From NCBI GenBank assembly GCA_041494645.1, contig JBGQBD010000001.1, positions 5,361 to 69,360 of the forward strand: a stretch of DNA of 64,000 nt. Direction: 5' to 3'. Below are positions 12,600-56,475 of this stretch, piece by piece. The position numbers and the translations under genes are program-made. Source of the DNA: Candidatus Limnocylindria bacterium (lineage in GTDB: Bacteria > Chloroflexota > Limnocylindria > Limnocylindrales > CSP1-4). The notes beneath the pieces were generated by a model. It had not been told where the DNA came from and did no database searches. It worked only from the letters and a program-made list of their open reading frames with translations. Numbering within the stretch: the first letter of the stretch is position 1; each line of letters opens with the position of its first letter.

Positions 12600-12680
12600 A
12601 TGGGCCGGTGCGCCCCGGCACCAGAGCGCCGTCCCGGCCCGAGCCTGCGCGACCCGTCACCGCGCACGGGGGGTGACGGC
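12600..12680. terminator. Terminator-like GC hairpins downstream of pgm
   Basis: Short inverted repeats (ggtgc..gcacc; gtcac-cgcgcacggggg-gtgac) lie in the 257-bp non-coding stretch after pgm. Confidence 0.3.
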
Positions 12681-12820
12681 GGGCACCAAAGCGCAAGACC
12701 GTCGGCCCACTCCTGCGCCCGCCGAAAGTACTGACCGGGGGGGCAGGAAGGCTGACTTTGACGGCCGGTCCGGCTCGTCTAACGTGTCTACGCACATGGC
12801 CGCAATCATGAGTTGCTACC

Positions 12821-13336
12821 TTGGATCAACCTGATCGTCAGCAGAATGTCGTGACCGCCAGGGGCCCGAGTCACGCGGTCACCTCGCTCGACCGCGAGTT
12901 CCTGGCCGTCCTGGGGTCCGAGGAACCGGCCGCGATAGGCCGCGCCGTCGCGCAGATCGTGCGAGGCGACGGATGGCACGAGGCCAAGGCGTCGGCCGTG
13001 CTGGTCCAGGCCATCGTCGCCTGGCTCGGCCCCAACTTCGTCTGGCCGACCGGCTTCTACGCCAATGGAACCGGCCCGGTCGAGGTCGTCGCCAAGGTGG
13101 GCAACTACTACATCACCGGGCACGGAATCGAGACCCAGGACGACCTGACGGTCGACTGCTGCCAGCGCCACCGCGCCAGGTTCAGCCAGTCGCGGCTCGA
13201 GGACCTCGATCTCGCCGTTCCCAATCCGCGTTTCACAATGGGCAGCCCGCTGGCCCGGCGCGCCGCCGACCGATTGGCCGCTTTGCTGTCCGAGGCGATC
13301 GATCCGGAGGTCGCCCTGGTAGTGCTGGGCGCCTGA
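12821..13336 (+). CDS. Hypothetical protein
   Basis: 171-aa ORF with high GC3 and normal amino-acid composition. The opposite-strand ORF is Arg/Gly-rich and looks like an artefact. No recognisable family. Confidence 0.4.
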   Translation: MDQPDRQQNVVTARGPSHAVTSLDREFLAVLGSEEPAAIGRAVAQIVRGDGWHEAKASAVLVQAIVAWLGPNFVWPTGFYANGTGPVEVVAKVGNYYITGHGIETQDDLTVDCCQRHRARFSQSRLEDLDLAVPNPRFTMGSPLARRAADRLAALLSEAIDPEVALVVLGA

Positions 13337-32054: not shown

Positions 32055-32384
32055 CTAGATCCGCTCGAACCGCTCGGTCGGCAGGACGAAGACCACGGCA
32101 CCGCCCACTTCAACTTCGAGCGGGTACGGCAGGAAGAACTCGCCCGGCTCCATGATCGGCGGGATCGGGCTTACCGTTTGGGTGCGGGCGTGGCAGTTGG
32201 CACGCACCAGGCCCACGACCTCCTCAACCTTGGCGTCGTCGACGCCGACCAGGATGGTGGCGTTGGACTGCTTGAGGAAGCCACCCGAGCTGTGCAGCCA
32301 GGTGGCTCGATACTCGTGGGCGAGCAGGGCGTCGATGAGGACGCGGGCGTCCTCGTTGTGAACCACCGCGACGATTAGCTTCAC
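32055..32384 (-). CDS. darA: PII-like cyclic-di-AMP receptor protein (DarA/PstA family)
   Basis: VKLIVAVVHNEDARVLIDALLAHEYRATWLHSSGGFLKQSNATILVGVDDAKVEEVVGLVRANCH...VSPI..PYPLEVEVGGAVVFVLP aligns along its whole length with B. subtilis DarA. The start is GTG. Confidence 0.75.
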   Translation of the reverse strand: MKLIVAVVHNEDARVLIDALLAHEYRATWLHSSGGFLKQSNATILVGVDDAKVEEVVGLVRANCHARTQTVSPIPPIMEPGEFFLPYPLEVEVGGAVVFVLPTERFERI

Positions 32385-32515
32385 GAGGCCGAGTATAGGC
32401 GGACGATCCTGCCTGGGGACCGCGAACCGGTGATTCTTCCAGGGTGACCTCACCGTCGCGGATGGGAGGGCGGGGCGTACAATCGGCCCGAGATCGTCAC
32501 GAGAAGGGATGAACT

Positions 32516-33550
32516 GTGTCGGGCGAACGACCGCTCCACGAACGGACGGATGGTCAGATGTTCGCGGCCGCCGCGGCCGCCGTCGCGCGTGGCGACGACC
32601 TGAACGACTCGCTGGCCGCGCTGCTCGGCCTTGCGACCGAGTACCTGGGAGGTAGCCTGGGGGCGACCTACATCCTCGACCTCGACCGCGACGCGCTCGA
32701 GCTGGTGGTCACGTCCGGTGTCGACGCCAAGACGGCCGAGGAGGCCGGTTCCATCAGGCCTGCCTCGGCAAGCCACGATCCGCTGGCCGACGTCACCCGA
32801 TCGCGCCATCCGATGGAGGTCGACGACGCGGGGCATGTCGGGATCCTGCGGGGAGCCGCCACGGCGCTGTTGCTGCCGCTGGTCGTCCGACGCGACGACA
32901 CCGAACTGGCGCTGGGCGTCATGGCCGTGGGTTTCGACGGGGCGCTTCCCGCGCACGACATCCTGGCCGGTGCGGAGCCGCTGGCGGACCTGGCGGCCGT
33001 AGCCGTGGAGCGGGCCCTGGCCCTGTCGTACGGCTCGGAGCGGGCGGAGTGGTTCGACCGGCTGGCTCACACCGATCCGCTGACGGGCCTGGCCAATCGA
33101 CGGACACTCGACAGGGTGCTCGAGCTGGAGGTGGCCCGGGCCGGAAGGCAGGGCCTGCCGCTGAGCGTCGCCCTGTTCGAGGTCGATCGCTTCGCCGAAA
33201 TCCTGAAGAAGGCCGGCAACGAAGTGGGCGACGAGGCGCTGCGGCGGGTGGCTCAGATCCTCGCCGAAACCGTCCGGCTCGTCGACACGATTGCTCGCTA
33301 TGGCGGGGACCAGTTCATCCTGGTGGCCGCGGGCGCGGATGGGCTGGTCGTCGTGGAACGGCTGGTCCGCAGCATCGCCGCGCTGCCTCCGGTCCATGGC
33401 AACGCCATCTCCGTCTCGGCGGGATTCGCCAGCTTCCCGCTGGACGGCCGCACGCCCGAGGAGCTGCTGGAGGTCGCGGAGCGGGCGATGAATTCGGCGC
33501 GCCTGGCGGGCGGCGGCAGAGTGGTCACGCAGGCGGCCACGACCGACTAG
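32516..33550 (+). CDS. GAF-domain diguanylate cyclase (GGDEF)
   Basis: N-terminal GAF-like region. The C-terminal region has DPLTGLANRR, the active-site RYGGDQF (GGDEF variant GGDQF), and an I-site region. Confidence 0.8.
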   Translation: MSGERPLHERTDGQMFAAAAAAVARGDDLNDSLAALLGLATEYLGGSLGATYILDLDRDALELVVTSGVDAKTAEEAGSIRPASASHDPLADVTRSRHPMEVDDAGHVGILRGAATALLLPLVVRRDDTELALGVMAVGFDGALPAHDILAGAEPLADLAAVAVERALALSYGSERAEWFDRLAHTDPLTGLANRRTLDRVLELEVARAGRQGLPLSVALFEVDRFAEILKKAGNEVGDEALRRVAQILAETVRLVDTIARYGGDQFILVAAGADGLVVVERLVRSIAALPPVHGNAISVSAGFASFPLDGRTPEELLEVAERAMNSARLAGGGRVVTQAATTD

Positions 33551-41865: not shown

Positions 41866-42112
41866 GCGGCTTGCAGTTCCTTCTTGGGCGGGGAGCGGGG
41901 CGCGCTTCTGCGGCACGACGGCCGGCCTCGCTCCCGGATTATACGCGGCATCCCCTCAACCCCGGCCCGGACAGAGGCCCCGGCCCGCGAGACGTTGCCA
42001 CCGATGCGGGGCCCTGGCCGGCCCGGCGTCGTCTCTACCCGAATGCGGAGGCAAGCCCAACCGAGACGCCGATTCGAAGGCGCACGGCAGTCGACGCGGT
42101 AGAGTCACGACC

Positions 42113-42805
42113 ATGACGCGCGAAACCCTGACCGGCCTGTCCGCCGACATCGTCGGCTGCCGCCTGTGTCCCCGGCTGGTGGCGTGGCGCGAAGATGCGG
42201 CAGCAAATCCGCCGGCCAGGTTCGCCGGAGAGCGATACTGGGCCCGGCCGCTACCCGGCTTCGGCGATCCGCGGGCGCGCATCCTGCTCCTGGGACTCGC
42301 CCCCGCCGCCCACGGCGGCAATCGTACCGGGCGGCTCTTCACCGGCGACAGATCGGGCGACTTTCTGTTCGCCTCGCTCTACCGAACCGGCTTCGCAAAC
42401 CGGCCGACATCCGTGGCCGTCGATGACGGGCTCATGCTGGAGGACGTCTACCTGGCGGCCGTGGTGCGCTGTGCGCCGCCGGACAACAAGCCTCTGCCCG
42501 AGGAGCGCGGGCACTGCTTGCCGTTCCTGGTCCGGGAGCTGGGGCTGCTGACCCGGGTCCGGGTGATCGTCGCGCTCGGCGCCTACGCCTGGGACGGCGC
42601 CCGGCTCGCCCTCACGGCGTCGGGCGCGGCGGCCACGGCGAGGCCGGCCTTCGGTCACCTGGCGGAGGTCAGCGTCGGCCGGTATTCCCTTCTCGGCTCG
42701 TACCATCCAAGCCAGCAGAACACCTTCACCGGCCGGCTCACGCCGGCGATGATCGACGCCGCGATGCTGCGAGCCCGCGAGCTGGCCGGGTCGCCGGAGT
42801 TCTGA
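42113..42805 (+). CDS. Uracil-DNA glycosylase, family 4/5 (UdgB-like)
   Basis: Has CRLCPRL near the N-terminus, GFGDP..RILLLGLAPAAHGGNRTGRLFTGDRSGDFL, and a C-terminal HPSQQN motif. Confidence 0.7.
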   Translation: MTRETLTGLSADIVGCRLCPRLVAWREDAAANPPARFAGERYWARPLPGFGDPRARILLLGLAPAAHGGNRTGRLFTGDRSGDFLFASLYRTGFANRPTSVAVDDGLMLEDVYLAAVVRCAPPDNKPLPEERGHCLPFLVRELGLLTRVRVIVALGAYAWDGARLALTASGAAATARPAFGHLAEVSVGRYSLLGSYHPSQQNTFTGRLTPAMIDAAMLRARELAGSPEF

Positions 42806-42867
42806 AACGGGTGGCACCGGGGCCGATTCGGTCTCACGGGCGCCACCTGGACTCGTAAACTCGCACC

Positions 42868-43584
42868 ATGAGCGAGGGCCGGCTGCTTCTCATCGACGAC
42901 GACGCTGCGCATCTCGACGCCCTTGCCGATCGCCTGGCAAGTGACGGCTTCGAGGTGGCGAAGGCCGCCAGCGGCGCCGCCGCGCTCCGACAGCTGGACA
43001 CGGCCTGGCCCGACCTCGTCATCCTGGACCTGATGATGCCGGAGATGGACGGCCAGACCCTGGCGGGCCGCATCAAGAGCCGAGCCGACATACCGATCCT
43101 CGTCCTGTCTGCGGTTGCCGCCGCGGACAGCAAGGCGGATCTCATCGCCCACTTCGCCGAGGATTACGTCACCAAGCCTTACGACTACGCCGAGCTCGTG
43201 GCGCGCGTTCGGCGCGTCCTGCGCCGCCTGGCGGACCAGATGCCCGTCGAGGAGCTGGCTTTGGGCGACCTGACGCTCGTGCCGCGGAAGCGCGAGGCGA
43301 TCGTCGGCGGCCGGCGCGTCGCCCTCTCCCCGACCGAATCGCGCTTTCTGGCGACCCTTGCTGCGAACATGCCGCGGCCCGTCTCGACGGAGCAGCTGCT
43401 CCGCAAGGTGTGGGCCGATTCGGACGCCGCGGATCCTGCCTATGTCTGGGTCACCGTGCGCCGGCTTCGACAGAAGGTCGAGGTCGACCCCGATGACCCG
43501 CGCCACCTGCTGACGGACCCCGCGGGCGGCTACCGCCTGGCCGCCTGGAGGCCGGGCCAGAGCCCCGACCAGGCGGAGTCCTAG
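42868..43584 (+). CDS. OmpR-family response regulator (orphan, no adjacent kinase)
   Basis: Has a receiver domain (LLIDDD..., DLVILDLMMPEMDG, K at ...VTKPY) and a winged-helix domain (LSPTESRFLATLAAN...VWVTVRRLRQKVE). Confidence 0.8.
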   Translation: MSEGRLLLIDDDAAHLDALADRLASDGFEVAKAASGAAALRQLDTAWPDLVILDLMMPEMDGQTLAGRIKSRADIPILVLSAVAAADSKADLIAHFAEDYVTKPYDYAELVARVRRVLRRLADQMPVEELALGDLTLVPRKREAIVGGRRVALSPTESRFLATLAANMPRPVSTEQLLRKVWADSDAADPAYVWVTVRRLRQKVEVDPDDPRHLLTDPAGGYRLAAWRPGQSPDQAES

Positions 43585-43755
43585 GGCGCGACAGAGGCCC
43601 TGGCGAGGGCTGGCGCAGGAGAGGGACGGATTCGGTGCTCGCGAAACAGCCTGCATTGGCAGGGCGGAGGACCTTCCGGCCGCCTCGTGTTGAAGGGCGG
43701 GAGACGCCAGACCCGGAGCCGCCGATGTCGGGCGCCGCTCTGGTAGGATGGGCCC

Positions 43756-44268
43756 ATGGAGGGCATGGTCCTGGTCCTCAATCAGAACTATGAGCCGCTG
43801 AACGTGTGCAACCTGCCGCGTGCCTTCCGGATGGTGTTCGGCGAGCGAGCCGAAGTGCTCGAGTACGACCACCAGGTCATCCGGACGCCGCGGGCCGACT
43901 ATCGCGCGCCCGCCGTCATCCGTCTCCAGCACCTGATTCGCCGACCGCGGCCGCGTGTCAAGCTGACCCGCCGAGAGGTCTTCACCCGCGACTCCTACAC
44001 GTGCCAGTACTGCGGCCGTAAGACCGGCGATCTGACCCTCGACCACGTCGTGCCACGCCACCGTGGCGGAGCCCACTCGTGGGATAACCTGGTCGCCGCC
44101 TGCAAATCCTGCAACCACCGCAAGGGCGGCAAGCTGCTGGACGAGGCCAAGCTCCGGCTCGCGCGCAGGCCGTCGGAGCCGCGCTGCGATGTGTACTCGG
44201 TATTCATCCCGTACCTCCGCGACGACAGGAACGAAAGCTGGCGAACGTATCTGTTCCTCGGCCATTGA
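43756..44268 (+). CDS. HNH endonuclease
   Basis: CQYCGRKTGDLTLDHVVPRHRGGAHSWDNLVAACKSCNHRKG is a canonical HNH/zinc-finger nuclease motif. Confidence 0.7.
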   Translation: MEGMVLVLNQNYEPLNVCNLPRAFRMVFGERAEVLEYDHQVIRTPRADYRAPAVIRLQHLIRRPRPRVKLTRREVFTRDSYTCQYCGRKTGDLTLDHVVPRHRGGAHSWDNLVAACKSCNHRKGGKLLDEAKLRLARRPSEPRCDVYSVFIPYLRDDRNESWRTYLFLGH

Positions 44269-44325
44269 CCGGGGCGTGGGCCTGACTGGGACGCCCGCGG
44301 ACGGGCGGGTTCAGGCGGTGGGACG

Positions 44326-45820: not shown

Positions 45821-46951
45821 ATGTTCGAGCTGTTGCTGCAGGCCGACAGGGCCGTGTCTGAAGGCTTGCTCGACCAGGCGGAGCGGACCTACTGGCAACT
45901 CGTCGAGCTGGACCCCACGAACGCGATCGCGGTCGTAGGACTGGCGCGGGTCTCGCTCGAGCGCGGCGACGAACAAATGGCCCGCACGTTCGCGGATCGG
46001 GCTAGGGCCATGGATCCGGAGAACTTGGCCGCCAGGCGAATCATCGAGGCGCTGGAACGCAGGATCCCAGGGGGCGTTGCGGCGGAGACGCCGGACCTGG
46101 CGCTGATCGCGGCCCAGCGCCTGGAGGCTTTGAGCAGGCGCCGCACCGCCGGTTCACATCGGCCGGAGGAGGGCGCGGGTACCGTGGCGGCGGCTTCGGC
46201 CGGCCCGTCGGCTGCGGCCACGGCCGGCGGCGCGAGAGGCGTCGCGTCCGGCGGACGGCATGACATCACGGCCGAGGCCGCGACCGGCAAGCCTGCCGGT
46301 GGCGGGCGGCGCAGGCGGAAAGACGAAGAAGCCGGGGCAGCCACCGCCTCCCAGGCCCCAGGTCGGCCCGCGCCAAAGCCCGCCAAGGCCGCTCAACCCG
46401 CTCCCGCCGACCACGCCGCGGCCGTCCACGCCGCGTCCGGTTCGATCAGAGGGCCGCGGTCCCGGCTGCGCCCGGACCCGATCCCCCAACTACCGTCCGA
46501 GCCCCTCAGGGAGCGGCGCCGGGCCGGGCGGCTGGCGGCCGCCGCCGCTGCCGCCGTCGCGGTCGCGATGCACCCGTCCGCACACCTCCCGCGGCACGAG
46601 CCGCACCAGGCCATGCCGCCCGGACGGGGCCGTGTGGCCGCGCAGGAGCTCCGGGCGCCCGCGCGGGACCCCTATGCCGCCGCGGAAGCGGCCGCGATGG
46701 TAGAGGCGGTCGACGCCGTGGACCTGGCCGACGAGGCGCCAGCGAGCACGCCAGGCCCGAGTGCAGACGCGGCGGACGCCCTCGGTGCCGAGGGGACGTC
46801 GGAGGCGGCATCCACGGGCCAGTCGGCGGCGATGGCTGGAGCCGGCGACAAGGCATCCCCCGCCGAGCCGGCCGAGCCGGCCCAAACCGCGCCCGATACG
46901 CCGGGGGCGGGCCGCAAGAAGGGTTTCTTCGAACGCCTGAGAGGCGGCTGA
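45821..46951 (+). CDS. TPR-repeat N-terminal domain protein with long Ala/Pro/Gly-rich disordered C-terminal region
   Basis: The N-terminal about 90 aa has TPR-like helices (AERTYWQLVELDPTNAIAVVGLARVSLERGD). The remainder is low complexity, and the codon bias is consistent with coding. Confidence 0.4.
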   Translation: MFELLLQADRAVSEGLLDQAERTYWQLVELDPTNAIAVVGLARVSLERGDEQMARTFADRARAMDPENLAARRIIEALERRIPGGVAAETPDLALIAAQRLEALSRRRTAGSHRPEEGAGTVAAASAGPSAAATAGGARGVASGGRHDITAEAATGKPAGGGRRRRKDEEAGAATASQAPGRPAPKPAKAAQPAPADHAAAVHAASGSIRGPRSRLRPDPIPQLPSEPLRERRRAGRLAAAAAAAVAVAMHPSAHLPRHEPHQAMPPGRGRVAAQELRAPARDPYAAAEAAAMVEAVDAVDLADEAPASTPGPSADAADALGAEGTSEAASTGQSAAMAGAGDKASPAEPAEPAQTAPDTPGAGRKKGFFERLRGG

Positions 46952-47047
46952 ATGTTACCCAGCGCATCGGTTCGGCGTTGCGCGGCGTTGGCGTGGCGCC
47001 GGGTCAACCCGGCGGGCTGAACCGCCGGGCCGGGGTAGAATCGAGAC

Positions 47048-47743
47048 ATGCCCTCCCTGAGCCGACCAGGCAAACCCGCGCCGCCTGCCTCACCTCCCCG
47101 ACCCGAGGAATGGCTTCCGCAGCAGTTCGGGCGGAGGCTTCGCGCCGTCCCGGACCCGCTGATCGAGCCGAGCTGGGGCGGCGTGCGTGTCATCGCCCGG
47201 GTCGGGCTCGGCCAGACGCGATTCGTCGACGAGGAGGGCGTCGACTGCACGGAAGAGTTCGCGGCCGTCGGGGAAGCGGTCTCGGCCGCGGCCCGGGCCG
47301 CCGAGCTGATCCTCGACGGCTTCCTGACCGTCGAGCCGACCCAGCCCTCGGCCGGGGTCGCGCTCCTGGGCGTCGAGCCCCCCAGTAAGGGTCAGCTGAT
47401 GACCCAGATGTTCGTGGGCAGCCGGCGATCGCGCCAGCTGGAATCCAGGCGCGATCTGGACCCGGACCGGCCCATCGCGTTCGTAGCCGTGGACCTCCTG
47501 AGCATCGACGGCTCGGGCCTCCTGGACGTCCCGCTGCTGGAGCGCAAGCGTCTCCTTGACGCGGCCCTGGAGGCCGGCGAGCTGGTCCGCATCACGCCGT
47601 TCGTGCGGCCGCCAATCGGAACCTTCGGCAGTACGTGGCGAGATCTCGGCTTCGGGGCTCTGGCATACAAGGGCGCCAACAGCCGCTACATCCCCAACGG
47701 CCGCAACGAGGATTGGTCCATCTTCCCGATACCCAGCAGATAG
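47048..47743 (+). CDS. ATP-dependent DNA ligase-like nucleotidyltransferase-domain protein lacking the motif I lysine (putative pseudo-enzyme)
   Basis: Has ligase motifs III (LILDGFLTV), IIIa/IV-like (FVAVDLLSIDG; GALAYK) and an OB-less C-terminus. Motif I reads EPSWGGVRV instead of KxDGxR, so the nucleophile Lys and the Asp are absent. Confidence 0.5.
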   Translation: MPSLSRPGKPAPPASPPRPEEWLPQQFGRRLRAVPDPLIEPSWGGVRVIARVGLGQTRFVDEEGVDCTEEFAAVGEAVSAAARAAELILDGFLTVEPTQPSAGVALLGVEPPSKGQLMTQMFVGSRRSRQLESRRDLDPDRPIAFVAVDLLSIDGSGLLDVPLLERKRLLDAALEAGELVRITPFVRPPIGTFGSTWRDLGFGALAYKGANSRYIPNGRNEDWSIFPIPSR

Positions 47744-47814
47744 GCTCGGCCGCTCGCACGATGTGCCCTCCACGCGCCAGGCGTGGTACGGTGGCGACGA
47801 TGCCGTCGAGCGCG

Positions 47815-49338
47815 CTAACTCCTGCAATTCGGGACCAGATCGCCCGGCTCGGTTGCGCCGACATCATGGTCGGGATTCCGAGCTACCGGAACGCGGCGAC
47901 CATCGGCCATGTCGTCCGCGCGGCACAGGCGGGCCTGGTCCAGTACTTCCCGGACCTGCGTCCGGTCCTGGTGAACGCCGATGCCGGTTCGCCGGACGGC
48001 ACGCAACGCGTGGTGGTCGAGACCGAGCCGCCCGGCTACGTCGAGCAGATCCTGCTCGTCCATCCCAGGAACCGCCTGGACCGAGTCAGCCTCACCTACC
48101 CCGAGGTCGACGGGATCGGGGGCAAGGGCGCGGCCCTGCGGACGCTCTTCGAGATGGCCGCCGCGCTGGAGGCAGAGGCTCTGGTCGTGGTCGACTCGGA
48201 CCTGCGGTCCATCGTCCCGGAGTGGATCGAGCTGCTGGCCGGCCCGATCCTGAAGGGCGGGTACGACTTCGTGGCCCCGCTCTACCTGCGCCACAAGTAC
48301 GACGGCACGATCACCAACACCGTCACCTACCCGGTGACGCGGGCGCTGTACGGGCATCGTATCCGGCAGCCGATCGGCGGGGACTTCGGCGTCAGCGGCG
48401 ACCTGATCCACTACTACCTGGAGCAGGAGAGCTGGACGCCCGACGTGTCGCGTTTCGGCATCGACATCTGGATGACGACGACCGCCCTGACCGGCGGCTT
48501 CGCCGTCTGCCAGACGCGCCTGGGTGCCAAGATCCACGACCCCAAGGACCCGGGCTCGGAACTGGGGCCGATGTTCCGCCAGGTCGTGGGGACGCTGCTG
48601 ACGATGGCCCGCGACAACGCGGACCGCTGGCTGGCCATCACCGGCAGCCACGACGTGCCCGCTTACGGCTTCGAGCGGTACGCCGAGCCGGCTCCGCTGG
48701 AGGTTGACACGCTGCGCCTGCTGAGCCAGTTCCACGCCGGCTCGCTCACCCTCGCCGAGACGTGGCAGCGGTTCCTGGCGCCGGACAACTGCCAGCACGT
48801 CCTCGCGCTCGCCGGGGAGGCCGGAACGCTGGCCGAGGCCGCGGCCCACCGGCTGGGGCTCGGCCGCGAGTCGGGCCGGGGCTCCGCCGGCGACCGGCTT
48901 CCGTCCACGGACGAGCTGTCCGATGCCGTGGCCGCGTTCCACTTCCCGGACGATCTCTGGGCCCGTGTCTTCTACGACCTGCTGGTCTCGGCGAGCTTCG
49001 GCGACGTGCCGGTGGAGCGGCTGGTGGCGGCGTTCGTGCCTATCCACTTCGGCCGGGTGGGGAGCCTCGTCGTCGAGAACCGGCGTCTATCCGACGAGCA
49101 GGCCGAGGAGCGCGTCGAGCGGCAGGCCCGCGAGTTCGAGCTGCTCAAGCCGTATCTCGTGGAGCAATGGCAGGCGGCTGCGGCCGGCGGAGACGGCGGG
49201 GCCGGCCGAGACGTCGAGATCGGCGGCGGCAAGCCCGGTGGCGGCGGCAAGACCGGCGGCGGCGGCAAGACCGGCGGCCGCGGCAAGACCGGCCGCGGCA
49301 AGACGGCCACCCCCGGGCCGGAGAACCCGGCGCCATGA
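47815..49338 (+). CDS. Glycosyltransferase-like protein (GT-A fold inferred) with C-terminal GGGKTG repeat tail; first gene of gpgS operon
   Basis: N-terminal IMVGIPSYRNAATIGHVV and VVDSDLRSI (DxD-like) suggest a nucleotide-sugar transferase. The C-terminus is GGGKPGGGGKTGGGGKTGGRGKTGRGKT. Its stop overlaps the start of USP-GpgS. Confidence 0.45.
   Translation, partial: LTPAIRDQIARLGCADIMVGIPSYRNAATIGHVVRAAQAGLVQYFPDLRPVLVNADAGSPDGTQRVVVETEPPGYVEQILLVHPRNRLDRVSLTYPEVDGIGGKGAALRTLFEMAAALEAEALVVVDSDLRSIVPEWIELLAGPILKGGYDFVAPLYLRHKYDGTITNTVTYPVTRALYGHRIRQPIGGDFGVSGDLIHYYLEQESWTPDVSRFGIDIWMTTTALTGGFAVCQTRLGAKIHDPKDPGSELGPMFRQVVGTLLTMARDNADRWLAITGSHDVPAYGFERYAEPAPLEVDTLRLLSQFHAGSLTLAETWQRFLAPDNCQHVLALAGEAGTLAEAAAHRLGLGRESGRGSAGDRLPSTDELSDAVAAFHFPDDLWARVFYDLLVSASFGDVPVERLVAAFVPIHFGRVGSLVVENRRLSDEQAEERVERQAREFELLKPYLVEQWQAAAAGGDGGAGRDVEIGGGKPGGGGKTGGGGKTGGRGKTGRGKTATPGPENPAP
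49209..49295. repeat. Tandem 18-nt repeat (ggcggcggcaagaccggc) x about 5 encoding Gly-Gly-Gly-Lys-Thr-Gly
   Basis: Direct repeats are visible in the sequence. Confidence 0.7.
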
Positions 49339-51287
49339 CCCGAACGCCACTCCCGTCCCGGATCCTGATTCCGGTCGCGAACCCCCTGACCGCCGAGGAG
49401 CTGGTCCGCATCGGCGCCTCGCTGATGGAGCCCCGAACCGGCAGCCTCACGGTCCTCGGCATAGTGGAGGTGCCGGAGGGAACGCCGCTCAGCGAGGGCG
49501 CCACGCGCGCTCGCCAGGCCCGCCGGCTGCTGCAACGAGTCCTCGACTGGGCCCCGGAGGGCGTCACGGTCCACCCCATCGTCCGTATCGGGCGCCGCGC
49601 GGCCGAGGGCGTGGTGGAGGCCGCGACCGAGCTGGACGCGGATCTGATCGTCTTCGGCTGGGGCGGCAAGCCGTCACCTCCCCGGCCGGGAGCCCAGGCC
49701 TCTGTCTTCTCGCCCACCATAGACGAGGTCGTGCGCGAGTCGCCCTGCGACATCGCCGTGGTCAAGCAGCGTGGCCCCGCCGAAATGAAACGCATCCTGG
49801 TGCCGATCCGCGGCGGCCCTCACGCCGTGCTGGCGTTGCGCTTCGCCGATGCCCTGGCCCATCGCAACGACGGCCACCTCGTGGCCCTGCACCTGGTGCC
49901 GCACGGAACCGCCGAGGGGATCCGAACGCAGTCGGAGCGCGCCCTGGCCCACTTCATCCGCCAGCACGCGGACGGCCAGGTGGAGCAGGCGGTTCGCGAG
50001 GCCTCGAACGTCCGCAACGCCATCCTGCGCGAAGCCGAGACCGCCGACGTGGTCATCATGGGGGCCTCGGCCGCGCCGGCGACGAGCCACGGTGAGACTT
50101 ACTTGTTCGGGGCCCTGCCTGAAGCGATCGCGACGCGATCCCGCAAGACGGTGATCGTCGTCAAGACGCGAGAGGCCATCGGCCAGGCCACGTTCGAGAA
50201 GCTCGAGCAGCGGGCCGAGACCCTGGCCGCGACCGACCGGGCGGCCCAAGAGGCTCGGTCTATCCCGCTCCGGGTGGAGCGCTGGTTCGGAGAATCTAAC
50301 TTCCACCACCGGGAGTTCGGGGACCTCGATCGGCTGGTCGGCCTCAAACAGAAGCAGGGGCTAACCGTCAGCCTCGTCCTGCCTGCGCTCAACGAAGAGG
50401 AGACGATCGGCCCGATCGTGGGCCGGGCCCGCCGCGAGTTGATGGAACGCCATCCGTTGATCGACGAGCTGCTCGTCATCGACTCCGACTCGTCCGATCG
50501 AACGCGCGAGGTGGCCGAGTCCGAGGGCGCCCGTGTCGTCATTCATCAGCAGGTCCTGACCCGTTACGGCAGCTTCCCAGGCAAGGGCGAGGCGCTCTGG
50601 AAGAGCCTGTTCGAGACCAGCGGCGACATCGTGGTCTGGGCCGACACGGACGTCCGCAACTGGCATCCGAGGATGGTGTACGGCACGGTCGGGCCGCTCA
50701 TCTCCGAGGAGCGGCTCCAGTACGTGAAGGGCTACTACCGGCGTCCGATCGTCGAGGACGGCGTGCTCAAGGAGGGCGGCGGCGGGCGGGTCACCGAGCT
50801 GGTAGCTCGCCCGCTCGTGAACCTCTTCTTCCCCGAGCTGTCCGGCCTGATCCAGCCGCTGGCGGGCGAGTACGCGGGCCGGCGAAGCCTGCTCGAAACG
50901 CTCCCCTTCTTCACCGGCTACGCGGTCGAGATCGGCCACATCATCGATATCGCCGAACGGTGCGGCCTGGAAGGGCTGGGCCAGGTCGATCTGGAGCGGC
51001 GGATTCATCGCAACCAGGAGCTGGAAGGGCTGTCCAAGATGAGCTTCGTGATCCTCCAGGCGGTCATGAAGCGGCTGGAGGAGCGGAGCAAGACCCGGCT
51101 CTTCGCCGATCTCGGTTCGACGATGAAGCTGCCGCGGTCCGGGCATGGGCACCTGAGCCTGGAGGTCATCGAGCTGGCGGACCACGAACGGCCGCCGATG
51201 ATCCGCATCCCCGAGTACCTGGAGAAGCGGCGCCAGGAGGGAGCCGCGGCAGGGGCCGAAGCGAGCCAGCCCGTGGGATCGCGATGA
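49335..51287 (+). CDS. gpgS: Tandem universal-stress-protein (UspA) domains fused to glucosyl-3-phosphoglycerate synthase (GT81)
   Basis: The C-terminal half has LVLPALNEEETIGPIV, DSDSSD (DxD) and the retaining GT81 core typical of GpgS. The N-terminal about 300 aa are two USP-like alpha/beta domains (ILIPVANP...; ILVPIRGGPH...). Confidence 0.75.
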   Translation: MTRTPLPSRILIPVANPLTAEELVRIGASLMEPRTGSLTVLGIVEVPEGTPLSEGATRARQARRLLQRVLDWAPEGVTVHPIVRIGRRAAEGVVEAATELDADLIVFGWGGKPSPPRPGAQASVFSPTIDEVVRESPCDIAVVKQRGPAEMKRILVPIRGGPHAVLALRFADALAHRNDGHLVALHLVPHGTAEGIRTQSERALAHFIRQHADGQVEQAVREASNVRNAILREAETADVVIMGASAAPATSHGETYLFGALPEAIATRSRKTVIVVKTREAIGQATFEKLEQRAETLAATDRAAQEARSIPLRVERWFGESNFHHREFGDLDRLVGLKQKQGLTVSLVLPALNEEETIGPIVGRARRELMERHPLIDELLVIDSDSSDRTREVAESEGARVVIHQQVLTRYGSFPGKGEALWKSLFETSGDIVVWADTDVRNWHPRMVYGTVGPLISEERLQYVKGYYRRPIVEDGVLKEGGGGRVTELVARPLVNLFFPELSGLIQPLAGEYAGRRSLLETLPFFTGYAVEIGHIIDIAERCGLEGLGQVDLERRIHRNQELEGLSKMSFVILQAVMKRLEERSKTRLFADLGSTMKLPRSGHGHLSLEVIELADHERPPMIRIPEYLEKRRQEGAAAGAEASQPVGSR

Positions 51288-52522
51288 ACGGCCGCGGCGA
51301 ACGCCTGCGCGTCCTGCTGGCGCCGGATTCGTTCAAGGGCTCGCTTTCCTCAGTGGAGGTGGCGAGGGCGCTGGCGGAAGGCTGGGCGCGAGGCCGTCCG
51401 CAGGACGATCTCATCCTGGCGCCGCTGGCGGACGGCGGCGAGGGGCTGCTCGCGGCGATGGCGGAGGCCGGCGGATGGGAGTGGCAGGAGTGCCCCGCCC
51501 ACGACCCGCTGGGCCGGCCTCTGACGGCCCGATGGCTGCTGTCCGGGGACGGTAGCCGGGCCGCGGTGGAGCTGGCCGAGGCGTCCGGCCTGTCCCGCCT
51601 TCCCGAGGGAGAGCCACGCGCGCCTCTCGCGGCCACGACCGATGGGACGGGCGAGATCTTGCAGGCCGTCCTCGACGCGGGAGTCCGCCACGTGGTCATA
51701 GGCGTGGGCGGCAGCGCCACCACGGACGGGGGCGCGGGCCTGCTCCGCGCCCTGGGGGTCTGGTATCGGGGCTCCGGCGAGCAGCTTCCCGGACCGATTC
51801 CGGGCCTGGCGACGGTGGACCTCGCGGCGCTGGACCCGCGTCTGAGCGAGCTAGAGCTGCGCGTCGCCTGCGACGTGACCAACCCGCTGCTCGGCGAGCA
51901 GGGCGCCGCCGCCGTCTACGGCCAGCAGAAAGGCGCCTGGCCGGAGGACCAGGAGAAGCTCGAAGCCTGGCTGACCCACTACGCCGACCTGCTCGAGGGG
52001 GCCTCCGGAACGCGGGCTCGTAACACGCCGGGCGCGGGGGCGGCCGGCGGCACGAGCTTCGGCCTGTTGTGCCTGGCACCCCGCATGCGTTCGTTCGAGC
52101 TGGTCCCGGGAATCGAAGTGGTCATGCAGGAGACCGGCTTCGACCAGCGGCTGGTAGGGGCCGATCTGGTGGTGACCGGCGAGGGCCAGATCGACACTCA
52201 GACCGCGTTCGGCAAGACGGCCTTGGGAGTCGCCCGCCGGGCGGCGGCGGCGGGCGTCCCGTGCCTGGCCATCGGCGGCGCGGTCACGCCGGAGGGGACG
52301 GCTGCCCTGGCTGCCGCCCGGGCTCTGGCGGTGCCGGTGCTGGACGGGCCGATGACGCTCGAAGAGGCCATGGGCAACGCGGCGTCGCTCGTCACCGCCG
52401 CCGGCGAGCGGCTTGCCCGGGTCATCGAGTTGGGCACGCTGGTAGGCAAGCGGCGGGCGGCGCGAGCCGACGCCACAACCGACGCCACGGCCGACGCCAC
52501 GGCCGGGGAGCCGGCCGCGTGA
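51284..52522 (+). CDS. Glycerate kinase (GlxK/GarK family)
   Basis: LLAPDSFKGSLSSVEVA, IGVGGSATTDGGAGLL and VTGEGQIDTQTAFGK are present. Its ATG overlaps the gpgS stop. Confidence 0.8.
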   Translation: MNGRGERLRVLLAPDSFKGSLSSVEVARALAEGWARGRPQDDLILAPLADGGEGLLAAMAEAGGWEWQECPAHDPLGRPLTARWLLSGDGSRAAVELAEASGLSRLPEGEPRAPLAATTDGTGEILQAVLDAGVRHVVIGVGGSATTDGGAGLLRALGVWYRGSGEQLPGPIPGLATVDLAALDPRLSELELRVACDVTNPLLGEQGAAAVYGQQKGAWPEDQEKLEAWLTHYADLLEGASGTRARNTPGAGAAGGTSFGLLCLAPRMRSFELVPGIEVVMQETGFDQRLVGADLVVTGEGQIDTQTAFGKTALGVARRAAAAGVPCLAIGGAVTPEGTAALAAARALAVPVLDGPMTLEEAMGNAASLVTAAGERLARVIELGTLVGKRRAARADATTDATADATAGEPAA

Positions 52523-53415
52523 CGCCAGCCGGCAGGCCGAGCGCCGGGGCGGCCGCGCTCGCCAGGTCGTCGCGGCGGGCCTCGAAGCCAGCCGCGAAGA
52601 CTCGTCGCCCGAAGAAGCGCTCGCCCGAGCAGGTCGCCCGCGCCTGGGCCGCCCGACTCTCGGCCGGGCGCCCGGGGCTGATCGCGTTCGTCCTGGACCG
52701 CCTCGCCGAGGCGAACGGCCGGCCGGTGTGGCAACGCCGCCTCGATCCCACGAGCGAGCTGGTCCTCACGATCCTCTCGCAGAACAGTGCCGACACCAAC
52801 GCCGAGGCGGCCTTCGCCGCTCTCCGGGCCGCCTACCCGTCCGCGCCCGCGCCGGCCGGCGGGCCCTCCGAACCGCGCCCGTTCGCCGGCTGGGGCGGCC
52901 GCGGCCTGCCGGACCTGCCGCCGCCGGACTGGTCGGCCGTGGACGCGGCGCCGCTCGCCGAGCTGACCGACGTGATCCGACCCGGCGGGCTGGCCCCGCA
53001 GAAGGCGCCCCGCATCCAGGCCGCGCTGCGAGCGCTCCTCGCCAACGGTGGCAGCTACTCCCTGGAGTTCCTGGCCGCGAGACCACCCCTGGAGGCGCGA
53101 GACTGGCTCGCCGCGATCCCCGGCATCGGCAAGAAGACGGCGTCGGTGGTGCTGCTGTTCAGCTTCGGCCTGCCGCTGATGCCGGTGGACCGCCACGTCC
53201 ATCGGGTCAGCCAGCGCATCGGCCTGATCCCCGGCAAGGCCGACGCAGACGCGGCCCACGACTACTACCTGGCCATGCTGGCGCCCGAGCAGATGTACGA
53301 GACGCACGTCTCGTTGATCACCCATGGCCGCCGGACGTGCCACGCGCAGCGTCCCGATTGCGAGCACTGCCCGCTGGCGCCGCGGTGCCGCTATTTCCTG
53401 CCCAGGGCGGAGTAG
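52519..53415 (+). CDS. nth: Endonuclease III (HhH-GPD DNA glycosylase/AP lyase with [4Fe-4S] cluster)
   Basis: Has the HhH motif LAAIPGIGKKTASVVL, the catalytic Asp region PVDRHVHRV, and the C-terminal cluster CHAQRPDCEHCPLAPRC. The GTG start overlaps the glycerate kinase stop. Confidence 0.8.
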   Translation: MTPAGRPSAGAAALARSSRRASKPAAKTRRPKKRSPEQVARAWAARLSAGRPGLIAFVLDRLAEANGRPVWQRRLDPTSELVLTILSQNSADTNAEAAFAALRAAYPSAPAPAGGPSEPRPFAGWGGRGLPDLPPPDWSAVDAAPLAELTDVIRPGGLAPQKAPRIQAALRALLANGGSYSLEFLAARPPLEARDWLAAIPGIGKKTASVVLLFSFGLPLMPVDRHVHRVSQRIGLIPGKADADAAHDYYLAMLAPEQMYETHVSLITHGRRTCHAQRPDCEHCPLAPRCRYFLPRAE

Positions 53416-53679: not shown

Positions 53680-54879
53680 GTGATGCATCAGTCTGAGGTC
53701 GGTCGCCCGAGTCGCCATGCTGCCCGCGATGGAGTCGGCGCCCGCGGCGCTGCCGATTCGCGGCCGAGGCCCAGACCTCGGCATCTGCCCCGCGTCGTCG
53801 GCTGGCTGTTGCGGCCTCGTTCACCAGGCCAGGCGCTCGTGGAGTTCGTCATCATCTTGCCCGTCCTCCTGCTCCTCCTGCTCATCGCCATCGACTTCGG
53901 ACGGGTCTTCGCCACCTACGTCGATGTCAACAACGCCGCCCGCGAAGCCGCCGCGTATGCAGCCTTCAATCCCACGGACGGGAGCGGCATTACGGCGTAC
54001 GCAACCCATGAGAAGAACGTCCAGGGACAGGGCGGCGAGGGGACGTTGTCCGTGAGCACCGCATGCCACAACCCTAGTGGCAGTGTCCTTGACTGCGCCG
54101 CCACTCCAGGGGGCGCCGGCACCGGGAACACCATCACCGTCACGGCGAGCGAACGATTCACCTTCCTCACGCCCTTCATCGGCAATCTCTTCGGCGGGGG
54201 TATCGACCTCCAGTCCTCGTCCACCGCCGCCGTCCTCGTGCTCGCCTCCAGCGGCGGCGACACTTGGAACTGCGGGACCCCCCCAGTTCCGGCGTTCACC
54301 GTCACTGCGGCCGGTCTGACCGTGACGCTCGACGCCGCGACTTCCAACCCGCATACCGGCCTGTGCGGTATCTCCGGCTACAACTGGGACATGGGCGACC
54401 TCCCCAACCCGTATTGGCCCGCCGAAGGAATGTACGCAACCTACACGTATGCCTCCGCCGGCACGTATACGATCACGCTGACGGCCACGAACCTCGCCGG
54501 ATACGCCACAACGACCCAGACCGTCACGGTCGACACGGCGACGCCAGGGCCGACGGCCAGCCCGACTCCCAATCCAACTGCCCCGCCCGCCCCAACGATC
54601 CCGCCCCCGCAGTGCAACACCGCGCCCTCGTTCACCTACAAGTTCACGGGCAACGGGAACGGGTCCAGGCAGCACGAGATGCAGTTCTACGGGTCGTATA
54701 CGGGCCAGCCCGCGCCCGCAACGTGGCACTGGGCCTTCGGTGACGGCCACACGGACCAGGGCCCGCTGTTGTCCACGGTGACCCGGCCCTACACGAACGC
54801 TGGAACGTTCACAGTGACGCTCACGGTAACGAACGGGTCGTGCTCCAAGTCCACGAGCCAACAGGTGAGCGTGCCATGA
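53680..54879 (+). CDS. TadE-like pseudopilin with two C-terminal PKD domains
   Basis: Has a TadE N-terminal motif RSPGQALVEFVIILPVLLLLL and two PKD-like repeats (YNWDMGD...YTYASAGTYTITLTATN; WHWAFGDGHT...YTNAGTFTVTLTVTNG). The real start is probably internal, near GTG about 53800. Confidence 0.6.
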   Translation: MMHQSEVGRPSRHAARDGVGARGAADSRPRPRPRHLPRVVGWLLRPRSPGQALVEFVIILPVLLLLLLIAIDFGRVFATYVDVNNAAREAAAYAAFNPTDGSGITAYATHEKNVQGQGGEGTLSVSTACHNPSGSVLDCAATPGGAGTGNTITVTASERFTFLTPFIGNLFGGGIDLQSSSTAAVLVLASSGGDTWNCGTPPVPAFTVTAAGLTVTLDAATSNPHTGLCGISGYNWDMGDLPNPYWPAEGMYATYTYASAGTYTITLTATNLAGYATTTQTVTVDTATPGPTASPTPNPTAPPAPTIPPPQCNTAPSFTYKFTGNGNGSRQHEMQFYGSYTGQPAPATWHWAFGDGHTDQGPLLSTVTRPYTNAGTFTVTLTVTNGSCSKSTSQQVSVP

Positions 54880-55409
54880 GATCGACCCGCATTCCTGCCG
54901 GTGGGCTCGACCCCCACGCCCGGCGTCGCGGGCAGGGCCTCGTCGAGTTCGCCCTCGTGCTGCCGGTGTTCTTCCTCGTGTTCTTCGGGCTGTTCGATGG
55001 CGGCCGCGCCGTCTACATGAACAGCGTCGTCTCGCAGGCCGCCCGTGAGGGCGCCCGGGTCGCCTCCGTCGAAGCGCCCTGGATCGGCTCGACCGACCCG
55101 ACGTGCGGCACCTTGGGCGGCCCGGTCTGTCCCGCATCCATCGCGGCTCTCAAGGCGGACGTCGTCGCCGCGGCGAACCGGATGGTGGCCCCGTTCGGGA
55201 GCATCCCGAGCGGTCAAGTCTATCTGAGCTGTGACACGCCCGGCAACGCACCCACAGGAAACTGGACGAGCAGCGACTGCACGAGCAAGAAGACCGGCAA
55301 CATCGTGTCGGTGCGGGTGGTGCTCACCTTCACCGCGGTCACGCCGGTCATCGCCCAGATCATTCCGCCGCTGTCGCTGGCCGGCGCCGCCACCATGACG
55401 ATCAACTAG
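54876..55409 (+). CDS. TadE-family pilus assembly protein/pseudopilin
   Basis: Has RGQGLVEFALVLPVFFLVFFGLFD N-terminal TadE motif. Its ATG overlaps the upstream stop. Confidence 0.65.
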   Translation: MRSTRIPAGGLDPHARRRGQGLVEFALVLPVFFLVFFGLFDGGRAVYMNSVVSQAAREGARVASVEAPWIGSTDPTCGTLGGPVCPASIAALKADVVAAANRMVAPFGSIPSGQVYLSCDTPGNAPTGNWTSSDCTSKKTGNIVSVRVVLTFTAVTPVIAQIIPPLSLAGAATMTIN

Positions 55410-55419
55410 GAGATTCACC

Positions 55420-56475
55420 ATGTTCCGGATGTCCCGCCCAGCGCGCCGATCTCATGGCTCTCGCGGCCAGATCCTCGTCCTGTTCGTATTGTCGCTCGTT
55501 TCAATGGTGCTGATGGTCGGCGTGGTCATCGATGGCGGGTACGGTCTCGCGCAGCGGCGCGCGGCCCAGAACGCCTCCGATTTCGCCGCCCTCAGCGGAG
55601 CCCGGGTCGTGGCCGAGTGGATCGCGGGCAATACGGTGGATGGAAGGGACGCCAACGTGCGGGCGGCGATCTCGGCGTCGATCCACGCCAACGGCGGCGC
55701 CCCCCTCAACTTCGGCTCCCCCAGTGGACCTCAGTACGTGGGCTCAACCGGAAACGCCACCGGCTGGGTAGGCTCGGGAGTCATTCCCGCGGGAACGGTC
55801 GGCGTCAGGTTGAACACGGAACGGACATGGAGGCCGTTCTTCCTGAGCATCGCGGGCATCAACTCGTGGTCCGCAAGCGCGACGGCAACGGCCAGGGGAG
55901 GCTACGCCTCAGGCCCCCCATCGGGCGGCGTGTTCCCGGCCGGCATCGCCGAAAACTTCTTCGTCGGGCGATCGACGTGCTCGGGCCCGGTAAGCTCCAA
56001 TCCGTCCAGTCCGTGCTACGTGCAGCATCTGACGCCGGGGGTCCTCAACGTGCCGGGCGGGTTCGGCTGGCTCAAGTTCGGCTGCCCCGGCTACGGCCTG
56101 GGGCAGAACAGCAACGGCTGTGGGAACGACAAGCCGTTCCTCCAGAGCGAGATCGAAGGCAACAGCTACGGGTGCTGCACGCAGGTCAACCTGCCCGGGA
56201 GCGCGGACAAGATCGGCAGCTTCCCCGGCAACAAGGCCAGCGCCGACTGCTCGTCCGTCTACGGTAAGCTCGTGTCGATCGCCGTCTGGGATTATGCCGA
56301 CGGCACCGGCCAGAACGCCTTCTACCACATCATCGGATTCACGGGCTTCGAGGTCACCGGCTGCCCCGGCGCAAAGAACCTCGACGGCGTCTGGAGACAG
56401 CCAATGACCCTGGGCCCCACGACGACCACTCCGGGCTTCGCCGGTGAAGGGCTCGCCGTGGAGCTGGTCCACTGA
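55420..56475 (+). CDS. TadG-like (Tad N-terminal domain) pilus-associated protein
   Basis: N-terminal GSRGQILVLFVLSLVSMVLMVGVVIDGG..AQRRAAQNASDFAAL matches the putative Tad-like Flp pilus-assembly N-terminal domain. It has a Cys-rich extracellular region. Confidence 0.55.
   Translation: MFRMSRPARRSHGSRGQILVLFVLSLVSMVLMVGVVIDGGYGLAQRRAAQNASDFAALSGARVVAEWIAGNTVDGRDANVRAAISASIHANGGAPLNFGSPSGPQYVGSTGNATGWVGSGVIPAGTVGVRLNTERTWRPFFLSIAGINSWSASATATARGGYASGPPSGGVFPAGIAENFFVGRSTCSGPVSSNPSSPCYVQHLTPGVLNVPGGFGWLKFGCPGYGLGQNSNGCGNDKPFLQSEIEGNSYGCCTQVNLPGSADKIGSFPGNKASADCSSVYGKLVSIAVWDYADGTGQNAFYHIIGFTGFEVTGCPGAKNLDGVWRQPMTLGPTTTTPGFAGEGLAVELVH

Follow-up and report, generated by a model that had tools for sequence, protein, structure and literature searches.

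The stress solutes glucosylglycerate and mannosylglycerate have been described mainly in thermophiles, cyanobacteria and actinobacteria. Among the described systems, the ggs-gpgS-gpgP locus of Persephonella marina is said, in work attributed to Fernandes et al. and to Costa et al., both of 2007 and cited in PMC3736172, to hold two glucosylglycerate pathways, the gene of a one-step synthase lying next to that of GpgS, the synthase of a two-step route. The same pairing is present, as g2 and g3, among five genes (g1 to g5) at positions 47048-53415 of a 64,000-nucleotide stretch (hereafter the window), which comes from a Candidatus Limnocylindria bacterium (contig JBGQBD010000001.1, positions 5,361 to 69,360). 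In contrast to P. marina, the GpgS of the window is of the actinobacterial GT81 type and carries two universal stress protein (USP) domains, and the third gene, g4, encodes a glycerate kinase rather than the HAD-type phosphatase GpgP. We suggest that a conserved operon of the Limnocylindrales, with g2, g3 and g4 as its probable core, serves to make a glycosyl-glycerate compatible solute, glucosylglycerate or possibly mannosylglycerate, by two routes. The suggestion draws on family membership, intact catalytic motifs, synteny, gene fusions and the conservation of promoter motifs, and the gene families and motifs support the overall reading of the preliminary description of this DNA, a glucosylglycerate-type solute cluster, though not all of its details. 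The cluster predicts that the Limnocylindrales, an abundant and uncultured order of the Chloroflexota, make a solute of this kind.

We note that the enzymes are of known kinds, since annotation pipelines already name g3 GpgS and the relatives of g2 glucosylglycerate synthase; what is new is a synthase fused to two USP domains. A literature search found no paper on a USP-GpgS fusion, nor on gpgS, ggs and glycerate kinase genes clustered together. The locus extends a known pathway and does not overturn its current understanding.

The solved enzymes with which g3 is best compared are the MpgS/GpgS of Rubrobacter xylanophilus (GT81; PDB 3f1y, 3kia, 3o3p) and mycobacterial GpgS (Rv1208; PDB 4ddz, 4y6n and others). 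These are single-domain proteins whose GT81 motifs are all shared with g3; ahead of this domain g3 carries about 300 further residues, which form two USP domains and a helical linker. The USP-USP-GpgS fusion proposed earlier, together with the profile matches by which it was to be checked, is confirmed. PF00582 is matched in two stretches at 87 bits, Pfam also reports a GT2-type domain, and the GpgS equivalog of NCBIfam, NF010496, is matched at 373.3 bits (cut-off 262) over model positions 5-306 of 307. A search of the PDB returns R. xylanophilus MpgS (3f1y) as the closest solved structure at 2e-74, followed by Mycobacterium tuberculosis GpgS at 1e-62. A loss of catalytic residues from the GT81 domain, which would have spoken against the assignment, was looked for and not seen: g3 keeps the LPALNEE, PGKGEALW, DTD, GGGRVTEL, QPLAGEYA and HRNQ motifs of the solved GpgS and MpgS enzymes, and all of them are invariant in 34 orthologues. 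The roles of these motifs, including that of the metal-binding histidine of HRN, we take to be those assigned in the M. tuberculosis structures.

The N-terminal 300 or so residues of g3 are modelled confidently by AlphaFold (pLDDT about 80-90), and this half of the model has the fold of the tandem USPs Rv2623 of M. tuberculosis, TTHA0350 of Thermus thermophilus and 3loq of Archaeoglobus fulgidus, on which it superposes with TM-scores of 0.64-0.72 on the target over about 280-315 columns. Those tandem USPs are free-standing, and Rv2623 and TTHA0350 bind ATP; in contrast, the USPs of g3 are fused to an enzyme and lack the canonical ATP motif, which we take to be G-2x-G-9x-G-(S/T). The motif is absent from both domains in the 34 orthologues, where domain 1 instead conserves GWGG, an insert of variable length and VFSPT, and domain 2 conserves GASA...LFGA. 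The tandem-USP module is thus probably without canonical ATP binding, and the direct nucleotide regulation that the preliminary description read from the fusion finds no support in these motifs. The module may serve in regulation, dimerisation or scaffolding and, as part of the synthase itself, might place solute synthesis under direct stress control.

The protein encoded by g2 had been left as an unknown glycosyltransferase that might add a second sugar. Its family is large (2,320 representative clusters at E of at most 0.001), with members of about 414-430 residues in metagenome-assembled genomes (MAGs) labelled Acidobacteriota, Nitrospirae, KSB1 and Thermodesulfobacteriota. Many homologues are named glucosylglycerate synthase by the Joint Genome Institute (JGI), and many carry the mannosylglycerate synthase domain of Pfam (MGS_GT, PF21969). 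The g2 of the window gives a weak GT-A match in Pfam, 53 bits against the GpgS model, PDB sequence matches at 4e-08, and no match to MGS_GT at any E up to 10. A close homologue reaches 25.5, where 27 is the MGS_GT threshold, and more distant members carry precomputed matches. The AlphaFold model, built on a 58-sequence alignment (pLDDT 80.6), has its best Foldseek matches in the PDB to the mannosylglycerate synthase of Rhodothermus marinus (GT78; 2y4m and 2bo4; E 3e-12, TM-score 0.71 on the target, about 450 columns). The match takes in the helical C-terminal domain of g2 as well as its GT-A domain, and the GpgS structures come next, over the GT-A part only. Identity to the R. marinus enzyme is only about 15 %, and g2 differs from it in an extra insert and a Gly/Lys-rich tail. 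This GGGKT-rich C-terminal tail is encoded by an 18/36-nt tandem repeat (Tandem Repeats Finder), is disordered in the model (pLDDT below 50) and varies in length among homologues. Across the 58 sequences there is no or almost no variation at D132-x-D134, the GKG lysine K109, the metal-binding H246 and the RHKYDGTITN block. Where GpgS has GGGRVTEL and HRNRP, g2 has YDGTITN and HDPKDP, and from these aligned motifs we infer that g2 lacks residues that GpgS uses for phosphate. We consider it most likely, on the strength of the JGI family name and the modelled fold, that g2 provides a second, one-step route in the cluster and not a second-sugar step.

Within the family, the pairing seen in the window recurs as gene fusion. 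A single 1061-aa protein from a contig of 48 % GC (P0122) joins a g2-like part to USP-USP and GpgS. Its C-terminal 600 residues align collinearly with g3 through both USP domains (45 % identity over 629 aa); the USP-GT81 fusion is therefore older than the order Limnocylindrales. Other fusions join GpgS to a g2-like part (P0164), a g2-like part to GpgS (P0199) and an MPGP-type phosphatase to a g2-like part (P0222). The gene fusions suggest that the two "alternative" synthases work together. Bifunctional mannosyl-3-phosphoglycerate synthase/phosphatase proteins of the NCBIfam NF011072 type are a precedent for fusing consecutive pathway enzymes, and the g2-family fusions follow the same logic with other partners; none of the described fusions has USP domains. 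Two further fusions of the family carry a C-terminal TrkA-N/RCK domain in P0156 (622 aa) and extra GT2 domains in P0124 (1179 aa, from a transcriptome of the dinoflagellate Polykrikos kofoidii).

Gene neighbourhoods outside the order were inspected as well. Beside P0122, in locus L087, lie genes for a MOFRL-type glycerate 2-kinase and for an MPGP-family phosphatase that passes its equivalog cut-off; in an Acidobacteriota MAG (L088) the neighbours of a g2 homologue are genes for an MPGP-family phosphatase, a small MscS-like protein and a glycerate kinase of the GlxK type; in a KSB1 MAG a g2 homologue directly follows a GpgS of the M. burtonii type, a pairing like that of P. marina; and on a Nitrospirae contig a g2-family gene lies among trehalose-synthesis genes, MscS/mechanosensitive channels and cation antiporters. 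The remaining contexts of g2 homologues that we inspected were uninformative, and a plasmid search with g2 returned only distant GT2 proteins. We also observed that a small MscS-like membrane protein (PF05552) is encoded directly after the g2-family gene in three unrelated phyla (L088 7303-8016, L089 7269-7988, L090 7277-7978); the cluster of the window has no such gene.

That g4 encodes a glycerate kinase, as first described, is confirmed by full-length matches to PF02595 (398 bits) and TIGR00045 (361.6 bits, cut-off 168.45); the 2-kinase and 3-kinase equivalogs both score below their cut-offs and nearly equally (267 against 625 and 261 against 686 bits). The preliminary description had cast the kinase as a supplier of phosphoglycerate. 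This role is not required, because 3-phosphoglycerate is a central metabolite, and the kinase recurs beside a synthase family of the putative one-step, free-glycerate type. The recurrence covers three settings, namely the Limnocylindrales and L088, both with GlxK, and L087, with the non-homologous MOFRL kinase. Nothing argues more strongly for a place of the kinase in the pathway, and for glycerate as its substrate, than the presence of two non-homologous glycerate kinases beside one synthase family, and this recurrent link bears on the fate of free glycerate.

We propose the following scheme. In the two-step route, g3 would join an NDP-hexose to 3-phosphoglycerate, and a phosphatase encoded elsewhere would remove the phosphate from the resulting intermediate; in the one-step route, g2 would join an NDP-hexose to free D-glycerate and so yield the solute directly. 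By phosphorylating D-glycerate, g4 would link the pool of free glycerate, which could come from breakdown of the solute, to the phosphoglycerate pool, and glycerate could then be re-used by g2 or returned to g3 and to glycolysis. Transcription would start at the conserved -10 element before g2 and yield a leaderless mRNA that also covers g3, g4 and g5, while g1 and g5 would be lineage-specific syntenic neighbours outside the solute pathway. A more ambitious version, which we put forward only tentatively, is that the one-step and two-step synthases, instead of being redundant, are the halves of one machine, which would comprise the g2 family, the USP-USP-GT81 GpgS and the glycerate kinase, with or without an MPGP phosphatase, and would cycle glycerate between its free and phosphorylated forms, with the flux gated by a non-canonical tandem-USP sensor inside the synthase; the single polypeptide of the 48 % GC contig would be its fused form.

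The phosphatase of the two-step route deserves separate comment. A GpgP of the HAD or histidine-phosphatase type was not found in the annotated 22 kb around the cluster. Scans for HAD and RHG motifs in the open reading frames (ORFs) supported by third-position GC content (GC3) gave a single RHG, in a DinB/HicB-like protein, and Pfam scans of 20 further ORFs of the window gave no phosphatase, eleven ORFs of at least 400 aa in the first 40 kb lying outside the scan. To that extent, the earlier statement that the window holds no GpgP is borne out. An unlinked phosphatase gene is the rule in actinobacterial-type GT81 systems (PMC3240985).

Several points weigh against a two-route solute operon. 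The organism is uncultured, and its enzymes are known here from genes alone. As no GpgP is present among the ORFs scanned, the two-step route is incomplete at this locus. The GT81 domain is nearest to an enzyme that makes mannosylglycerate in vivo (PMC3240985). The GT81 half of the full-length AlphaFold model of g3 is poor (pLDDT 64, and below 50 at residues 444-629); only the USP half was used, and the model gives no basis for contacts between the USP and GT81 parts. The link from g2 to the characterised Ggs of P. marina (EC 2.4.1.268) is drawn from JGI names, fold and context. Members of the g2 family adjoin or are fused to MPGP-type phosphatases with no GpgS nearby (P0222, L088), and some of them could make a phosphorylated product. 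Finally, housekeeping genes (HNH, CCA-adding enzyme) share the synteny, and gene order conserved within one taxonomic order is weak evidence for g4 and g5.

The main rival to separate routes is that g2 acts in series with g3, glycosylating glucosyl-3-phosphoglycerate or glucosylglycerate to a di-hexosyl-glycerate, or else that g2 uses 3-phosphoglycerate with another sugar and its product needs a phosphatase. The fusions of the g2 family to GpgS (P0122, P0164, P0199) and to the phosphatase (P0222) suit such a series, as does L088, where the phosphatase gene is directly upstream of the g2 homologue and no GpgS gene lies within 6 kb. The translational coupling of g2 to g3 is nearly constant and is more typical of consecutive steps or of subunits than of alternative routes. 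We nevertheless think the series unlikely: over its whole length g2 matches the fold of a one-step, glycerate-using mannosylglycerate synthase, the JGI name of the family is glucosylglycerate synthase, many g2-family genes stand alone with no GpgS nearby, and the known second-sugar enzyme, MggA, which adds mannose to glucosyl-3-phosphoglycerate, belongs to GT4 and has a different fold (PMC3736172). The suggestion that the upstream glycosyltransferase adds a second sugar thus has no support from its family. An identity of g2 with MggA itself, a retaining mannosyltransferase of GT-B fold, was considered and rejected, g2 being GT-A by Pfam, NCBIfam and fold.

A second rival, to which we give about as little credence, concerns the sugar: the product of the cluster might be mannosylglycerate, or both solutes, rather than glucosylglycerate. 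In vitro the MpgS/GpgS of R. xylanophilus takes mannose as well as glucose donors, and mannosylglycerate accumulates in its host (PMC3240985). Since no solved structure is closer to the GT81 domain than this enzyme of dual specificity, g3 may use glucose or mannose, and the best structural match of g2 is likewise a mannosylglycerate synthase. Against this, g3 passes the GpgS equivalog, the orthologues are named GpgS and glucosylglycerate synthase by NCBI and JGI, no gene for GDP-mannose synthesis lies in the cluster, and the donor specificity of GT81 enzymes is not settled by sequence alone.

The glycosyl-glycerate operon we propose is conserved among uncultured Limnocylindrales of soil and freshwater. 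A genome scan with the g2-family alignment returned the 80 closest loci, nearly all from MAGs titled Limnocylindrales or Chloroflexota (two are titled Sulfotelmatobacter and Verrucomicrobiia), and the proteins of the window were located in them by tblastn to map gene order. Among these loci, 59 species-level Limnocylindrales genomes carry g2 to g5 in unchanged order and on the same strand. Of the junctions, g2-g3 is the tightest, with a 4-nt overlap possible in 47 of the 59 genomes, no gap above 500 nt and nothing inserted, and this pair is the core of the cluster. At the g3-g4 junction an overlap is possible in 15/59 and gaps of more than 500 nt occur in another 15, with inserts that include a GNAT acetyltransferase gene and, judged by eye, an M28-peptidase-like ORF. 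The related MAGs are labelled fen, palsa and soil, and the homologues are named Candidatus Limnocylindrales and phylum Chloroflexota.

Because the window has about 70 % G+C and raw ORF lists are crowded by spurious frames, genes were called by GC3 frame analysis, which left one frame per stretch, all on the + strand, followed by translation. Five genes result, concordant with public gene calls. An exact-protein search places the window on an 80-kb JGI metagenome contig, and its sequence is also present in the NCBI MAG GCA_041479205.1. The start of g2 is that used by JGI and gives an N-terminus common to its homologues. The gene list of the preliminary description and its 4-nt overlaps among the last four genes are confirmed by this analysis, and the recurrence of order and strand in the 59 genomes speaks against chance; g1 and g2 are separated by 56 nt. 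Coordinates are collected in the table.

Table. Genes, domains and sequence elements of the cluster and its surroundings, in window coordinates.
Feature	Position	Strand	Length	Description
g1	47048-47743	+	231 aa	ATP-dependent DNA ligase adenylation (NTase) domain, pseudo-ligase, without OB domain
g2	47800-49338	+	512 aa	Two-domain GT-A glycosyltransferase of glucosylglycerate synthase/mannosylglycerate synthase type; Gly/Lys-rich low-complexity tail
g2 tail repeat	49184-49304	+		18/36-nt tandem repeat
g3	49335-51287	+	650 aa	USP-USP, helical linker, GT81 glucosyl-/mannosyl-3-phosphoglycerate synthase domain
g3 USP domain 1	49359-49766	+		Residues ~9-144; PF00582
g3 USP domain 2	49791-50165	+		Residues ~153-277; PF00582
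g3 GT81 domain	50274-51212	+		Residues 314-626; NF010496
g4	51284-52522	+	412 aa	Class-I (GlxK/GarK-type) glycerate kinase
g5	52519-53415	+	298 aa	Endonuclease III-family DNA glycosylase, basic low-complexity N-terminus
g2-g3 overlap	49335-49338	+	4 nt	ATGA
g3-g4 overlap	51284-51287	+	4 nt	ATGA
g4-g5 overlap	52519-52522	+	4 nt	GTGA
-10-like hexamer	47036-47041	+		TAGAAT; ends 6 nt before g1 ATG
Extended -10-like element	47784-47792	+		TGgTACGGT; ends 7 nt before g2 ATG
Cyclic-di-AMP receptor protein	32055-32708	-		PF06153
GGDEF diguanylate cyclase	32513-33550	+
UDG-family and HNH genes	about 42100-44270
TPR gene	45821-46951
Tad genes	53683-56475			TadE/TadG-like, with PKD domains

Promoters were sought comparatively, as a TANNNT hexamer whose end lies 5-8 nt upstream of the start codon, the geometry of a leaderless mRNA. 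Such a hexamer precedes g1 in 54/69 loci and g2 in 73/79, where its variants are TACGGT (42 loci), TAGGGT (18) and TAAGGT (7). At the other genes, which served as controls, it occurs in 0-7 % of loci: the CCA-adding enzyme (0/49), the TPR protein (4/55), g3 (0/79), g4 (1/59) and g5 (1/55). That conserved hexamers stand before g1 and g2 only argues for a g2-g5 transcript, and we infer one putative promoter for g1 and another for a leaderless transcript of g2 to g5. Scans for the sigma-70 consensus and for terminators found nothing above shuffled sequences, and an Rfam scan found only a sub-threshold sRNA match inside g3 and no riboswitch.

The outer genes, g1 and g5, raise a third alternative, namely that the five genes, the dead ligase domain and the endonuclease III (EndoIII)-like glycosylase among them, form one system that ties solute synthesis to DNA repair under stress. 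The ligase-like pseudo-enzyme of the preliminary description is borne out. The match of g1 to PF01068 is at the gathering cut-off (26.2 bits) and covers the ligase adenylation domain only, the protein ends at residue 231 with no OB-fold domain, and in an alignment to M. tuberculosis LigD (1vs0) EPSWGGVR falls on motif I, EGKWDGYR. The position of the catalytic lysine is never K in 67 of 67 orthologues, whereas the orthologues retain E-P-x-W-x-G-x-R and K-x-A-N-S-R-Y; g1 is thus a pseudo-enzyme under conservation, and probably a syntenic neighbour with a putative promoter of its own. The EndoIII-like gene likewise stands at the family level: g5 matches HhH-GPD (PF00730) at 41 bits (cut-off 26) and, weakly, the EndoIII iron-sulfur binding domain, carries the GKKTA lysine, the VDRH aspartate and the C-x6-C-x2-C-x5-C cysteines of a 4Fe-4S cluster, and has Deinococcus radiodurans EndoIII-1 (4unf/8a5c) as its closest structure at about 1e-45. 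It scores below the nth equivalog TIGR01083 (98.4 against 211.7 bits) and below the DR2438 model (167 against 400).

In favour of such a five-gene system, g1 and g5 hold their positions in nearly all Limnocylindrales loci, purifying selection acts on g1 although its lysine is lost, and UDG and HNH genes lie just upstream. The coupling of g5 to g4 that had been described as unusual is present here as a GTGA overlap, and an overlap is possible in 26/59 genomes; it is not universal, since gaps of more than 500 nt, with toxin-antitoxin or other genes inserted, part g4 from g5 in 13 of the 59. At the g1-g2 junction an overlap is possible in only 1/56 loci, and in 9/56 the gap exceeds 500 nt and genes are inserted, among them one for a GNAT acetyltransferase; g1, moreover, is preceded by a -10 element of its own. 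The order HNH, CCA-adding enzyme, TPR protein, g1 to g5 runs throughout the loci, and because housekeeping genes such as that of the CCA-adding enzyme are equally syntenic, conservation of order within one order of bacteria says little about g1 and g5. At the loci with g2 or g3 homologues that we inspected outside the Limnocylindrales, no ligase-like or EndoIII gene is linked to the solute genes. A single five-gene system is therefore very doubtful in our judgement, and g5, syntenic and translationally coupled here, probably has a function unrelated to the solute.

Priming of a methylglucose polysaccharide of the MGLP type, instead of synthesis of a free solute, is rejected as highly improbable: GT81 GpgS is the first MGLP enzyme in mycobacteria (PMC3240985, PMC2674218) and GNAT acyltransferase genes are inserted in the cluster of some relatives, but the accessory genes are missing, with no GH57 or other glucan-elongating enzyme, methyltransferase or octanoyltransferase-like gene within the 22 kb that surround the cluster or at the related loci that we looked at, while a one-step synthase with a glycerate kinase fits solute turnover better and the g2 family lies in osmoadaptation islands elsewhere.

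Some minor observations concern the inserts and the flanks of the operon proposed here. One locus of each kind of GNAT insert was inspected, between g1 and g2 (L068 5937-6950) and between g3 and g4 (L027 10679-11212); these genes could be passengers, or could acylate the solute. In locus L003 a PhdYeFM/PIN toxin-antitoxin pair (12664-13307) lies between the glycerate kinase and EndoIII-like genes and breaks the g4-g5 coupling. In the window, the UDG-family gene and the HNH endonuclease gene upstream of g1, together with g1 and g5, give the neighbourhood a hint of DNA repair, and the solute genes lie between g1 and g5. The gene immediately upstream of g1 encodes an N-terminal TPR module followed by some 300 residues of Ala/Pro/Gly-rich low complexity with several short tandem repeats. 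After the cluster come the Tad pilus genes and, just beyond them, a response regulator and histidine kinase pair, which in relatives directly follows g5. In many bacteria osmotic homeostasis is linked with cyclic-di-AMP, and a gene for a cyclic-di-AMP receptor protein lies about 15 kb upstream of the cluster, together with that of a GGDEF diguanylate cyclase.

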